Origin: Wolbachia endosymbiont of Drosophila innubila
GTDB taxonomy: Bacteria; Pseudomonadota; Alphaproteobacteria; Rickettsiales; Anaplasmataceae
Reading direction: 5' to 3'
Length of the DNA stretch: 32,000 nucleotides
Assembly (NCBI RefSeq): GCF_021378375.1
Contig: NZ_CP076228.1
Location: 420,001 to 452,000, forward strand
Part shown: positions 27,090 through 30,457 of the stretch, one piece after another
Position numbering within the stretch: the first letter of the stretch is position 1
How the letters are laid out: the number at the start of each line of letters is the position of its first letter
Notes under the pieces: generated by a model
What the model saw: only the letters and a program-made list of their open reading frames with translations
What the model was told of the DNA's origin: nothing
Databases searched by the model: none
Translations under genes and position numbers: made by a program

Positions 27090-27745
27090 CCCATAGAAAC
27101 AAAAAAAACTTCCTTGACAAACTCCGCTAGCCCCCTTATCATGAAACTGAAGCTATTTATTTATCTTCTCTGTACAGATTAAATGACAAAAAAACTCACG
27201 TATCTGGCGTCCCATGTTTAATTTTTTGCACTATGTGCACCTTGTGTCTTTATAAAATTTCTAAGTTTTTACCTAATATAAGCTGAAATGCGCTTATAAA
27301 GCATTTAAAACATCAAAAAACGCCGATTTAAAAAATGGATAGTGAATAACTAGCTACCCTAGGGTTTCTTTTGCCTTTTTTTCTGTTTAGTAAATTTCTT
27401 AATGTTTATAATTTAGATTAGTTGCGGCTTAAAAGCAACTAAATCGCGGTTATTAAGCGTTTAGAATAAAAAAACGCCATACTTGAAAGTATAATGTAAG
27501 TAATTAGCCAACCACGGGGCTTCTTTTGCCTTTTTTTTCATTTGGTAAATTTTTTAATATTTATACGGAAGGTAGCGCGTGACGCTGGAACCCCAAAAAA
27601 AGGAGGCACTGGAACGACAAAGTGGAGTGTCTGCTTCTGTCATCCTATGATAGCTAAAAAGACCTGGTCACGCGCTGGAATGACACCGAAGGGGCTACTG
27701 CCCTCTTGGATGGAGACCAGTGTCAGCTACTTAGATGATACCTTT
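27090..27745 (+). repeat. Left arm of the diverged inverted repeat bracketing recJ
   Basis: Aligns by eye along its length with the reverse complement of 29661-30455, apart from different palindrome inserts in the middle. Starts directly after the stop codon of the upstream gene. Confidence 0.8.
27114..27142 (+). promoter_or_regulatory. Near-consensus sigma70 promoter candidate (left arm), firing toward recJ
   Basis: TTGACA (27114-27119), 17-nt spacer, TATCAT (27137-27142). The same block occurs in the right arm with a single spacer substitution. Confidence 0.5.
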
Positions 27746-27838
27746 TTTCTACTTAGTTTAGGTTATGCAGAAGTCTAATACAATTATAGAACAAGCTTAA
27801 AAATTCTGGTAAAGTAGTTTTATTTACAAAGAAAGAAT

Positions 27839-29578
27839 ATGCTACTTGAAATTGAAAAGCGCAGCATAACAAATGCATTGTGGAAGTTGCAAGAAGCAGA
27901 TCAAAGGCAAATCTTAACTCTTACACAGAGATTTGAGTTACCAGAAATATTAGCAAGAATATTGGTTACTCGTGGTGTTAACATAGAAAATGCAAGCGAC
28001 TTCTTATATCCACTAATCAGATCGCTATTACCAGATCCCTTTCACCTTCTTGATATGGATAAAGCTGTTTCTCGTATAATACGGGCAATAAAAAATGATG
28101 AAAACCTTGCAATATTTGGTGACTATGATGTTGATGGTGCAACGTCGTCAGCATTGATTAACAGGTACCTGAGAGCAATCGATATACACTCTATAATCTA
28201 CATTCCAGATCGTGTTGATGAGGGTTATGGATTAAACACAGATGCTTTATTACAACTTAAAAAGAATGGAATTGATTTATGTATTTCCGTTGATTGTGGT
28301 ACGCTTGCATATCAACCAATAGAAGATGCAAAGGCTTTTGGTCTTGATATTATAGTTGTTGACCATCACCTTGGTACGGAAAAATTACCAAGCGCCGTAG
28401 CAGTTGTGAATCCAAACCGCCTTGATGAGAGCTCTCCTTATAATAACCTAGCAGCAGTTGGAGTGTCATTTCTGCTAATTGTTGCTCTTAATAAAAGCCT
28501 ACGTGAGCAAGGATTTTTTACCAACAAAAAAGAACCAGATTTATTTGATCTGTTGGATTTGGTTGCCCTGGGAACTGTCTGTGATGTTATGCAGATCACA
28601 GGCCTCAATAGAGCACTTGTCTCACAAGGATTAAAAGTTATGTCAACAAGAAAAAACGTTGGCTTGCGTGTTTTATTTGATGCTTTGGGAATCCTTGAAA
28701 AACCAAGTGTTTCTCGATTAGGGTTTAGTATTGGGCCATGCATAAATGCTGGAGGAAGAATTGGAGAAGCATCGCTTGGTGCAAGGTTGCTTTCCACCGA
28801 TGATGATGAAGAGGCACATTCAATCGCGCTAAAATTAATAGATTTGAATAATGCAAGAAAAGTGTTAGAAAATGAGGCTCTCTTGGAAGCTACAGCACAA
28901 GCGGAAAAGTCTGCCCAATCAGGTGCGAATTTTATAATGATAAGTGGCAATTGGCACCAGGGAATAATTGGTATAATTGCATCAAGGCTAAAGGAGCAGT
29001 TTCACTTGCCAACAGTAGTGATATCTTTAAATAATGGAATAGGAAAAGCAAGCTGTAGATCAATTTTGGGAGTTGATATCGGTGCTGCAGTCCTTTCCGC
29101 AAAGTTTATAAATTTGATTATTGAAGGTGGTGGCCATAGTATGGCGGCAGGATTTTCAATTAAAGAAGACAAAATAAATGATTTGCATGATTTTTTTACT
29201 GAAAGATTTTCAAACTCTATAAATGAGAAAACTTTAAAAGCTGATAGTATAGTAACTGCTAAAGCAATAAACTTATCTCTGTGGAACCAACTGCAACGCT
29301 TGGGACCATTTGGAGTTGGAAATCCTGAACCAAGGTTTATTATCCAAGGAGCAAAGATAAGAAAGCCTGAAGTTATAGGAGTTGACCATATAAAATGTTT
29401 TATTGCTGATGATAATGTTATGGTAAGAGCTATTGCATTTCGTTCTGCAAATACTCATCTTGGCTCTGCTATCATGCAGGGTAATGTTAAAGCTATTTTG
29501 GGTAAAATCTCTATGAATTACTGGAATGGCAATGAATTTGTACAATTTTTAATAGAAGATGTATTGACCATAAGTTGA
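27839..29578 (+). CDS. recJ: Single-stranded-DNA-specific exonuclease RecJ
   Basis: 579 aa. DHH family motifs IFGDYDVDGATS, DRVDEGYG, VDCG, VVDHH and the DHHA1 GGGHSMAAG block. Confidence 0.95.
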   Translation: MLLEIEKRSITNALWKLQEADQRQILTLTQRFELPEILARILVTRGVNIENASDFLYPLIRSLLPDPFHLLDMDKAVSRIIRAIKNDENLAIFGDYDVDGATSSALINRYLRAIDIHSIIYIPDRVDEGYGLNTDALLQLKKNGIDLCISVDCGTLAYQPIEDAKAFGLDIIVVDHHLGTEKLPSAVAVVNPNRLDESSPYNNLAAVGVSFLLIVALNKSLREQGFFTNKKEPDLFDLLDLVALGTVCDVMQITGLNRALVSQGLKVMSTRKNVGLRVLFDALGILEKPSVSRLGFSIGPCINAGGRIGEASLGARLLSTDDDEEAHSIALKLIDLNNARKVLENEALLEATAQAEKSAQSGANFIMISGNWHQGIIGIIASRLKEQFHLPTVVISLNNGIGKASCRSILGVDIGAAVLSAKFINLIIEGGGHSMAAGFSIKEDKINDLHDFFTERFSNSINEKTLKADSIVTAKAINLSLWNQLQRLGPFGVGNPEPRFIIQGAKIRKPEVIGVDHIKCFIADDNVMVRAIAFRSANTHLGSAIMQGNVKAILGKISMNYWNGNEFVQFLIEDVLTIS

Positions 29579-29695
29579 GTGTATCTGTTCAGCAGAGTGG
29601 CAAAATAGGTAGACAAGATAAACCAAAAAATCGAGAAAAAGTGAGTTTACAACAACTGGTGTCATGAAATTATCTGACACTGATTTCCATCCAAG

Positions 29696-29734
29696 AGGGT
29701 GTCATCCCAGTGCGTGACACTGGGATGACACCCT
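29696..29734. repeat. Perfect 17-bp-stem palindrome of the ccagtg...cactgg family
   Basis: agggtgtcatcccagtg cgtga cactgggatgacaccct. Confidence 0.9.
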
Positions 29735-29738
29735 ACTT

Positions 29739-29995
29739 AACCGTCATACCGCGATTCATTCGCGGTATCTCTAGATCCCGCTAACAAGTAGCGGGATGAC
29801 GAGCTTATCGTCATGCCACTGCGAACCGTCATACCGCCGCGAACCGTCATACCGCGATTCATTCGCGGTATCTCTAGATCCCGCTAACAAGCAGTGGGAT
29901 GACGAGCTTATCGTCACGCCGCCACGAACCGTCATACCGCCGCGGCGCTAACAAGAGATCCCGCTAACAAGCAGCGGGATGACGGTTGTCGTTTA
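29739..29995 (+). repeat. 103-bp tandem repeat (about 2.5 units) of double-hairpin modules
   Basis: The unit start aaccgtcatacc recurs at 29739/29842 and 29824/29927 (period 103). Each unit holds ataccgcga-ttcat-tcgcggtat and atcccgcta-acaag-tagcgggat hairpins. Confidence 0.85.
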
Positions 29996-30397
29996 GCCAT
30001 AAACATTAAAAAATTTACCAAATGAAAAAAAAGGCAAAAGAAACCCTAGTCATTGTCTATTTTCAGTATTGGCGTTTTTAAGTCTTAAACACTGCAATTT
30101 AGCTGCTTTTGAATGCAACTAACCTACGCTGCAAATGTTTAAGAAATTTACTAAGCAGAAAAAAAGGCAAAAGAAACCCCGTGTTAGCTAGTTGTCACTC
30201 TCTAATCCTGCAAATTGGCGTACTATACTGTCTTAAACGACTTATAAGCGCGTTTCAGCTTATATAGGTAAAAACCCAGAAATGTTGTGAAGACATAAGG
30301 TGCACATAGTGCAAAAAATTAAAAATAAGACGCCAACTACGTTGTTTTCTTGCTGTTTAATCTGCACAGATGAAGATAACTGAATACCTTCAATACC

Positions 30398-30426
30398 ATG
30401 ATAAGGGGGCTGGCGGAGTTTGTCAA
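30398..30426 (-). promoter_or_regulatory. Near-consensus sigma70 promoter candidate (right arm), firing antisense toward the recJ 3' end
   Basis: Reverse complement reads TTGACA (30421-30426), 17-nt spacer, TATCAT (30398-30403). Confidence 0.5.
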
Positions 30427-30457
30427 GCAAGTTTTTCGTTTCTATATGGGCTATACC

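Follow-up and report, generated by a model that had tools for sequence, protein, structure and literature searches.

In the 32,000-nt stretch of the genome of the Wolbachia endosymbiont of Drosophila innubila analysed here (the window; contig NZ_CP076228.1, positions 420,001 to 452,000), the gene recJ lies between two non-coding sequence arms in inverted orientation, and the nature of these arms is the subject of this report. The recJ gene (27839-29578, plus strand) encodes a single-stranded-DNA-specific exonuclease of 579 aa, which was recognized as a full-length equivalog by TIGR00644 (554.6 bits). On the left side, a COX1-like gene encoding 438 aa (25773-27089, plus strand; Pfam COX1, 38.3 bits) ends with the TGA at 27087-27089, and on the right side a ygfZ/CAF17-like gene encoding 268 aa (30458-31264, minus strand; TIGR03317, 71.7 bits) ends with the stop codon at 30458-30460; lon, an nhaC-like gene and groES/EL are the other neighbours at this locus. 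Directly upstream of recJ is its native upstream region (27777-27838, plus strand), which was found by alignment and blast matches to be conserved in all Wolbachia supergroups. On the other side, the gene is followed by a short dispersed module (29579-29699, minus strand) that includes a terminal block at 29674-29699; the first 68 nt 3′ of recJ are conserved across supergroup A, and a paralogue of the module is located between groEL and a YhdP gene in related genomes.

An earlier note on this DNA, made from the sequence alone, had described recJ as enclosed by diverged inverted arms that start at the stop codons of the flanking genes. A repeat finder and MAFFT alignment confirmed this description: positions 27090-27575 and the reverse complement of 29990-30457 could be aligned continuously over about 480 nt with 76-80% identity, beyond which the two arms diverge into GC-rich sequence. 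The left arm begins directly 3′ of the TGA of the COX1-like gene, and the right arm reaches 30450-30457, next to the ygfZ stop codon. The repeat finder returned a collinear series of inverted repeats (27090-27402 against 30139-30450) with 76-91% complementarity, made up of the segments 27090-27168/30372-30450 (84%), 27189-27275/30265-30351 (83%), 27267-27329/30212-30274 (76%) and 27348-27402/30139-30193 (91%), together with a terminal inverted-repeat pair at 27701-27742/29658-29699 (83%). Counting from the predicted transcription start, the identity between the arms is 76.5% across 409 columns. All the sequence blocks listed in the earlier note were present. A 26-nt block that is identical in both arms (27218-27243, plus strand; 30297-30322, minus strand) contains the palindrome TGCAC-TAT-GTGCA; the sequence GGGKTTCTTTTGCC-T7 occurs four times, twice in each arm; and the block CCCTCTTGGATGGARAYCAGTGTCAG (CCCTCTTGGATGGA...CAGTGTCAG) occurs once per arm. 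In shuffled sequence, the number of matches expected by chance was 0 for the 26-nt, GGGKTTCTTTTGCC-T7 and terminal blocks. The GC-rich inserts that differ between the arms consist of hairpins resembling repetitive extragenic palindromes (REP) and of a 103-nt tandem repeat in two copies. The sole open reading frame (ORF) of the left arm (27542-27778, 78 aa) had no Pfam match.

Sequences related to the arms were collected from other genomes, and we refer to this repeat family by our own name E and to the collected comparison loci by L numbers. An E profile (nhmmer) was built from 22 full-length copies and matched the left arm at 27094-27625 (E-value = 4.7e-132) and the right arm at 30443-29935 (E-value = 1.5e-152), and 122 matches to the profile were found in the collected loci. 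When metagenomes were scanned for the pattern GGGNTTCTTTTGCCTTTTTTT and then searched by blast with the arms, E was found on 51 metagenomic Wolbachia contigs, many of which end inside E, some of them at both ends, a pattern characteristic of an assembly-breaking repeat. Viral contigs scanned with the 19-nt core of the conserved 26-nt block gave no match. Repeats at both arm positions are also present in Table S1 of the wMel genome paper (Wu 2004, PMC368164), where class 4 contains the right arm (290275-290484) and six other loci, and class 29 contains the left arm (293384-293810) and at least 13 other loci. In addition, the arm blocks matched wMel primers that had been made for five other intergenic regions (IGR), four of them exactly and one with a single mismatch (Woolfit 2015, PMC4349823). 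The published ncrwmel02 amplicon, compared by eye, had no arm blocks in common.

Comparison of the arms with these other copies allowed us to place them within the family. The sequence obtained from wMel IGR-1021 (between WD1243 and WD1244) by 5′ rapid amplification of cDNA ends (5′RACE) matches the right arm with 96.3% identity and the left arm with 79%, and the first 100 nt of the predicted left-arm transcript show about three differences from the wMelPop-CLA copies at 131,390 and 1,067,756. Altogether, each arm is approximately 96-97% identical to copies elsewhere in wMel-type genomes, versus about 79% to the other arm, and therefore the arms did not arise as a local inverted duplication. 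The columns in which the two arms agree are those conserved in the family, as measured on 17 other copies (r = 0.54), with a mean family conservation of 0.88 at arm-identical columns vs. 0.64 at arm-differing columns; the 26-nt block shows almost no variation throughout the family. Block-wise conservation, which had been taken as an argument for function at this locus, is real, but it mirrors the conservation of the family. Furthermore, a metagenome contig (L117 1-1437; WNGO01022683.1) carries a left-type E copy on the plus strand (8-468) that faces a right-type E copy on the minus strand (946-1392), with REP-like sequence alone and no gene between them and an ankyrin-repeat gene beyond, which is the layout of the window minus recJ. 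These results led us to the conclusion that the arms are very probably two independent copies of a dispersed, non-coding, promoter-carrying Wolbachia repeat family that resembles MITEs (miniature inverted-repeat transposable elements), with no duplication around recJ. The structure itself is real and consists of two ordinary, already catalogued E members with nested REP and tandem modules, a reading that fits the evidence and was absent from the options considered in the earlier note.

The anatomy of the family can be read from its complete members. A complete E element is about 575-775 bp long and starts with a 14-bp terminal inverted repeat, AGACYTCTTGCATA, and a short leader, followed by a near-consensus sigma-70 promoter (TTGACA-17-TATCAT) and a conserved transcribed body with TGCAC-TAT-GTGCA; after the body there is a tandem pair of sub-repeats, about 135-155 nt in length and each with GGGCTTCTTTTGCC and then a T-run, and the 3′ end ...TTAGGTTATGCAAGAAGTCT. 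In many cases the 3′ part harbours or adjoins REP-like palindromes tagged with CGTC and units of the type of VNTR-105, a variable-number tandem repeat. Two complete copies, L009 3800-4374 (575 bp) and L035 5558-6331 (774 bp), are bounded by AGACTTCTTRCATA ... TATGCAAGAAGTCT, and the 14-mer is present at one end and in the expected orientation in eight further copies. The 3′ terminus CCTTTTTTCTNCTTAGTTTAGGTTATGCAAGAAGTCT is common to the left arm of the window and to copies in L009, L032, L035 and L142. E is multi-copy, non-coding and shorter than about 1 kb, as are MITEs, and the indel lengths across E copies are not multiples of three.

The left arm (27090-27776, plus strand) is an E element that lacks the 5′ end, keeps the 3′ end and bears nested REP-like inserts. 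It contains two tandem sub-repeats with a period of 155 nt (27362-27565), each with GGGKTTCTTTTGCC and then a T-run (27362-27382 and 27517-27537), of which the second site was flagged as weakly terminator-like. They are followed by the GC-rich REP-like inserts (27576-27742), which take in the dispersed motif CCAGTGTCAGCTACTTAGATGA at 27717-27738 as well as the terminal block at 27701-27726, and by the 3′ terminus CCTTTTTTCTACTTAGTTTAGGTTATGCAGAAGTCT (27745-27776), which was located by motif search and whose last 13 nt (27764-27776) equal the 3′ terminal inverted repeat minus one base. The right arm (29990-30457, minus strand) is an E-family core without the 5′ end, in which a motif search for a convincing 3′ terminal repeat found none; the 5′ terminal repeat and the leader are missing from both arms. 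In the alignment of recJ-upstream regions, homology among all supergroups begins exactly at 27777, right after the E terminus, and this terminus is found upstream of recJ only in the window, wMel, L002, L004 and L005; therefore 27776/27777 marks the boundary between filled and empty sites, and the left element ends 62 nt before the recJ ATG. The inner end of the left arm, formerly placed at 27745, has accordingly been moved to 27776. Most E copies have the 5′ repeat and leader, and several independent ones start at an internal (C)ATA(TA)GAAAC (both window arms, L001, L081 and L082); in the window arms (27087-27100 and 30445-30460) and in L001, this start point lies directly 3′ of the stop codon of a gene in the same direction, a frequent siting among E copies.

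A sigma-70 promoter was predicted in each arm. The left one (27114-27149, plus strand) has the −35 hexamer TTGACA at 27114-27119, a 17-nt spacer, the −10 hexamer TATCAT at 27137-27142 and the predicted start at G 27149, and the right one (30391-30426, minus strand), which points toward the 3′ end of recJ, has its −35 element at 30426-30421, its −10 element at 30403-30398 and its predicted start at 30391. These are the two best sigma-70 matches in 27000-30550 (11/12 positions). Across the full-length copies, TTGACA is found in 35/35, followed by the 17-nt spacer, and the −10 sequence TATCAT in 30/35. The 5′RACE inserts of wMel IGR-1021 and IGR-1047 (Woolfit 2015, PMC4349823) are E copies, and in each of them the first RNA base is the G of GAAGG/GAAGC, located 7 nt past the −10 element; the 5′ end of the IGR-1021 product aligns to window position 30391. 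Likewise, the starts mapped by Cappable-seq in wMelPop-CLA at 131,390 and 1,067,756 (PMC12558409) are at that G or one base upstream, so that the mapped starts in four paralogous E copies are all 7-8 nt past the −10 element. By homology with these copies, the window arms are predicted to start transcription at 27149 (plus strand) and 30391 (minus strand), both toward recJ; the left promoter would give read-through into recJ, and the right promoter would give convergent, antisense-directed transcription. The IGR-1021 transcript extends into the gene downstream of it (Woolfit 2015, Table 4, PMC4349823), and the IGR-1047 RACE product passes the first T-run. As products of RACE and of reverse-transcription PCR (RT-PCR) cross the T-run, the T-runs are not efficient terminators. 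A highly expressed orphan start site near recJ in wAlbB is mentioned in Table 2 of the Cappable-seq paper; the recJ loci of supergroup B have no full E nearby, and the site was treated as unconnected. For another wAlbB orphan start, near DEJ70_01410 (282278-282985; Table S3, PMC12558409), the upstream 50 nt, TTAAATAAAAAATTGCTTGACAGACTCTGGTAGCTTCATTATAGTGGAAAA, resemble the E promoter, whereas the downstream RNA does not resemble E.

The GC-rich inserts contain two further kinds of repeat. A perfect REP-like hairpin with 17-bp arms is located at 29696-29734, and the Rfam family WsnRNA46 gave a sub-threshold match on both strands at 29682-29747 (24.9 bits, the gathering score being 65.3), which hints that the published Wolbachia sRNA-46 sits in the same kind of REP-like palindrome. 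Next to it, a VNTR-105-type tandem repeat (29739-29987) comprises two 103-nt units that are 94% alike and a partial third; Tandem Repeats Finder (TRF) reported 2.0 copies of 103 nt with 94% match at 29739-29944. Each unit contains two 23-bp hairpins with 9-bp stems (29746-29768, 29775-29797 and repeats thereof) and CGTC-tagged palindromes; the CGTC head is visible in the consensus unit given by TRF, AACCGTCATACCGCGATTCATTCGCGGTAT.... The terminal block overlaps the dispersed REP-like motif CCAGTGTCAGCTACTTGGATGA, which is commonly found 9-80 nt 3′ of the 3′ part of E.

The locus was then compared across Wolbachia genomes. Many supergroup-A genomes, wMel among them, encode exactly the RecJ protein of the window, and in supergroup-A genomes the COX1-like gene also precedes the left arm. 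In none of 23 other Wolbachia genomes do the flanking genes of the window lie near recJ; most of these recJ loci have E copies nearby in other positions and orientations, those of supergroup B have no full E nearby, and in other supergroups E points away from recJ. The orientation of recJ is constant, and always convergent with ygfZ, in 19/19 listed supergroup-A arrangements with ygfZ adjacent (about 18 of them distinct, as one genome is shared), beyond which there are 24 further similar places. Nine supergroup-A strains have a right-arm core with 100% identity to that of the window, and a tenth strain has one with 99.8%; for the cores of both arms, conservation among supergroup-A strains is 98.5-100%. 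The intergenic lengths vary: the recJ-ygfZ interval ranges from 818 to 983 nt among supergroup-A strains with identical RecJ and YgfZ, and the left intergenic region differs between strains by indels of about 80-300 nt. In most supergroup-A strains with identical RecJ, the REP-like portion of the left arm is longer by about 296 nt (window ~27585-27605 vs. L145-L153 9451-9746), L152 has about 80 extra nt there, and the 750-nt left intergenic region of the window is found in none of the approximately 19 arrangements listed.

Insertion sequences (IS) or changed flanks were found at one or both arms in L144, L147/L157, L152, L159, L162 and L163. In L144, a 1.7-Mb supergroup-A genome (OZ014601.1; 7841-8354 and 13809-13942), a right-type E copy lies upstream of recJ, with 92.5% identity to the right arm of the window and 77.5% to the left arm, and IS5-type transposase genes are present in both intergenic regions in opposite orientation, which suggests conversion or successive rearrangements between E copies. 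In L159 (ENA ERZ25070725, 6793-8810), ygfZ has an adjacent E copy that is 100% identical to the right-arm core and is followed by an IS, and recJ no longer lies there. Since ygfZ keeps its E copy without recJ in L159 and a facing pair exists without recJ in L117, the arms are part of the surroundings of the flanking genes, as opposed to a unit built on recJ. E copies also lie at gene-order breaks around recJ in other supergroups, and repeats have long been viewed as drivers of Wolbachia rearrangement (Wu 2004, PMC368164). Slippage, IS insertion and homologous rearrangement may all take place at E copies and their nested repeats, and rearrangement mediated by E would explain why the recJ neighbourhood in supergroup A differs from that in other supergroups. 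A rearrangement of this kind is a plausible way in which recJ, accompanied by only about 62 nt of native upstream sequence, came between two E copies in supergroup A.

Several points speak against the interpretation of the arms as members of a MITE-like family, or limit it. The flanks of the two complete copies showed no clear target-site duplication, which is a small sample and weak evidence, and no matching transposase was identified, the IS in L144, L147 and the window not having been compared end to end with E; spread of E by recombination or gene conversion instead of transposition is possible. Of the source genome, the search covered the 32-kb window, which contains just these two E copies. 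The start sites of the arms themselves are absent from the wMelPop-CLA Cappable-seq tables, which were searched both for the predicted wMel coordinates and for sequence specific to the arms. The siting of E agrees with the family reading: the upstream gene has the same direction as E in 32/45 copies, mostly ending within about 80 nt of E, and the downstream gene has the same direction in 39 and the opposite direction in 40, as at random. These counts were made with ORFs of at least 100 aa and no curated genes and are crude.

Among the alternatives, selection of the arms as a regulatory pair for recJ, with sense read-through from the left and convergent antisense transcription from the right tuning its expression, is unlikely. 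Both promoters aim at recJ, paralogous copies have mapped start sites, the IGR-1021 transcript shows that such RNA can enter a downstream gene, and the arm cores are highly conserved in supergroup A. However, this conservation is no more than the closeness of the strains would give, RecJ and YgfZ themselves being identical; the direction of E relative to downstream genes is random; E points away from recJ in other supergroups; and the Cappable-seq tables lack the arm starts. What stands of the proposal of paired regulatory or non-coding RNA modules in the earlier note is the conserved promoter, which is a property of a genome-wide repeat family and not of a pairing selected around recJ. It is likewise doubtful that E is a mobile repeat which has seeded Wolbachia genomes with dozens of strong orphan promoters and that, at recJ, sense read-through and convergent antisense transcription from two inward-facing copies captured by chance measurably tune this recombination nuclease, which would in turn affect the stability of these repeats.

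It is distinctly improbable that E is a small-RNA (sRNA) gene family with conserved structure and that the arms are two paralogous sRNA genes. The strong conserved promoter, the conserved transcribed body, the mapped 5′ ends and several small predicted hairpins would agree with it, but RNAalifold on 19 diverse copies gave a covariation term of only −1.09 kcal/mol with 3/42 compensatory pairs, so that RNA covariation is negligible and a structured sRNA was dropped as an explanation; the small hairpins hardly vary and hence are uninformative on covariation. Moreover, the RNA is not known to have a defined 3′ end, with RACE and RT-PCR products crossing the first T-run, and the terminal inverted repeats indicate a mobile-element origin. 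No Rfam family was matched at threshold: at the gathering threshold the whole window gave tRNA only, and a search of 27000-30550 by E-value gave sub-threshold matches only, on the REP hairpin.

An old inverted duplication around recJ that forms an invertible cassette and permits RecA-mediated inversion, as proposed in the earlier note, is highly improbable. The arms are indeed inverted over about 480 nt with identical stretches of up to 26 nt, and the right-type copy in the left position of L144 shows some exchange or conversion between copies; against this, both arms have closer paralogues elsewhere, recJ keeps the same orientation in all the supergroup-A arrangements listed, no recombinase or invertase gene was found among the neighbouring genes, and complete single-fly wMel assemblies equal the reference save three small mutations (PMC11226609). 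The mention of "recJ" in the LILAP paper concerns the enzyme RecJf and not the gene. Least credible of all is recJ as the cargo of a composite or foldback transposon ending in the two arms: its neighbours in supergroup A are wholly different from those in the 23 other genomes, merely about 62 nt of its upstream sequence are common with them, and in L117 the E(+)-REP-E(−) layout is likewise present, there with no intervening gene, but the outer ends of the arms are truncated 5′ ends with no terminal repeats, the arms are only about 79% alike, no transposase was found within the arm-recJ-arm unit and no flanking duplication around it, the right-arm E remains with ygfZ where recJ is absent (L159), and E at gene-order breaks in other supergroups fits repeat-mediated rearrangement better.

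Other repeats and mobile-element remnants were observed elsewhere in the window. At 11243-11339, a 32-nt unit, AGAGGTTGTCCGGAAACAAGTAAAAGGCTATA, is repeated perfectly three times in tandem, directly upstream of an ORF that runs from 11367 and starts MRKKYPTDLSEREW, and a DDE_Tnp_1_2 transposase fragment follows at 11884-12195; the 32-nt unit resembles the terminal repeat of a Wolbachia IS5-family element, and the whole may be an IS with a triplicated end. In a 532-aa ORF on the minus strand (9402-11000), for which Pfam gave no match, a unit of 129 nt (43 aa) is repeated in tandem 2.4-2.7 times. Approximately 3 kb at 5066-8200 are devoid of ORFs of at least 100 aa, and transposase fragments lie 3′ of this stretch (DDE_Tnp_1 at 8213-8605; IS110-type Transposase_20 at 13170-13592); together they look like a zone of decayed mobile elements.

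The interpretation of the arms as E copies has little significance for recJ itself, as its enclosure is expected where the same repeat fills intergenic regions. It implies that several of the reported intergenic transcripts and orphan starts of wMel and wMelPop belong to one family, which should be analysed together and with care for multi-mapping reads. E and its nested modules also mark sites of length variation, IS insertion and gene-order breaks, and they aid work on rearrangements, assembly gaps and strain-typing markers. In the literature searched, no published name or description of E as one family was found, and its description at family level, with terminal repeats, one promoter and start site, and siting just after gene ends, may be a modest new synthesis.

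The Correia elements of Neisseria are dispersed intergenic repeats with a functional sigma-70 promoter, which can transcribe into neighbouring genes. As a promoter-carrying intergenic repeat, E is analogous to them in function only; the two are unrelated in sequence, the length of E is several times greater, and its promoter is internal and not created at the element end. The IGR-1021 and IGR-1047 transcripts (PMC4349823) and the wMelPop-CLA orphan starts (PMC12558409) come from paralogous E copies that share the promoter and the position of the start; they were reported as single loci without a family description, and the recJ copies are not among the reported start sites. As regards the nested modules, the clustered short extragenic palindromes at 27576-27742 and 29696-29987, several with a CGTC head, are like the CGTC-type REPs described in Wolbachia (Di Nocera et al. 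2013, PMC3733652), an assignment made by CGTC head and clustering; the REP-like part is merely nested in or attached to E, the 480-nt core of which is AT-rich and non-palindromic. The tandem repeat shares with VNTR-105 of wMel (Riegler et al. 2012, PMC3287509) the period of about 103-105 nt, the two 23-bp hairpins with 9-bp stems and the strain-variable copy number, but the named marker lies at another locus, between WD1129 and WD1131, and the sequence identity was judged from primer similarity only. Compared with the repeats catalogued in wMel (Wu 2004, PMC368164), no target duplication or matching transposase was found for E, and the window copies are without the 5′ repeat; what E shares with those repeats is a length of about 0.5-0.8 kb, a non-coding nature, a dispersed and mostly intergenic location and, in complete copies, the 14-bp terminal repeats. 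Wolbachia pipientis is reported to have the highest MITE density among surveyed prokaryotes (PMC11602168).

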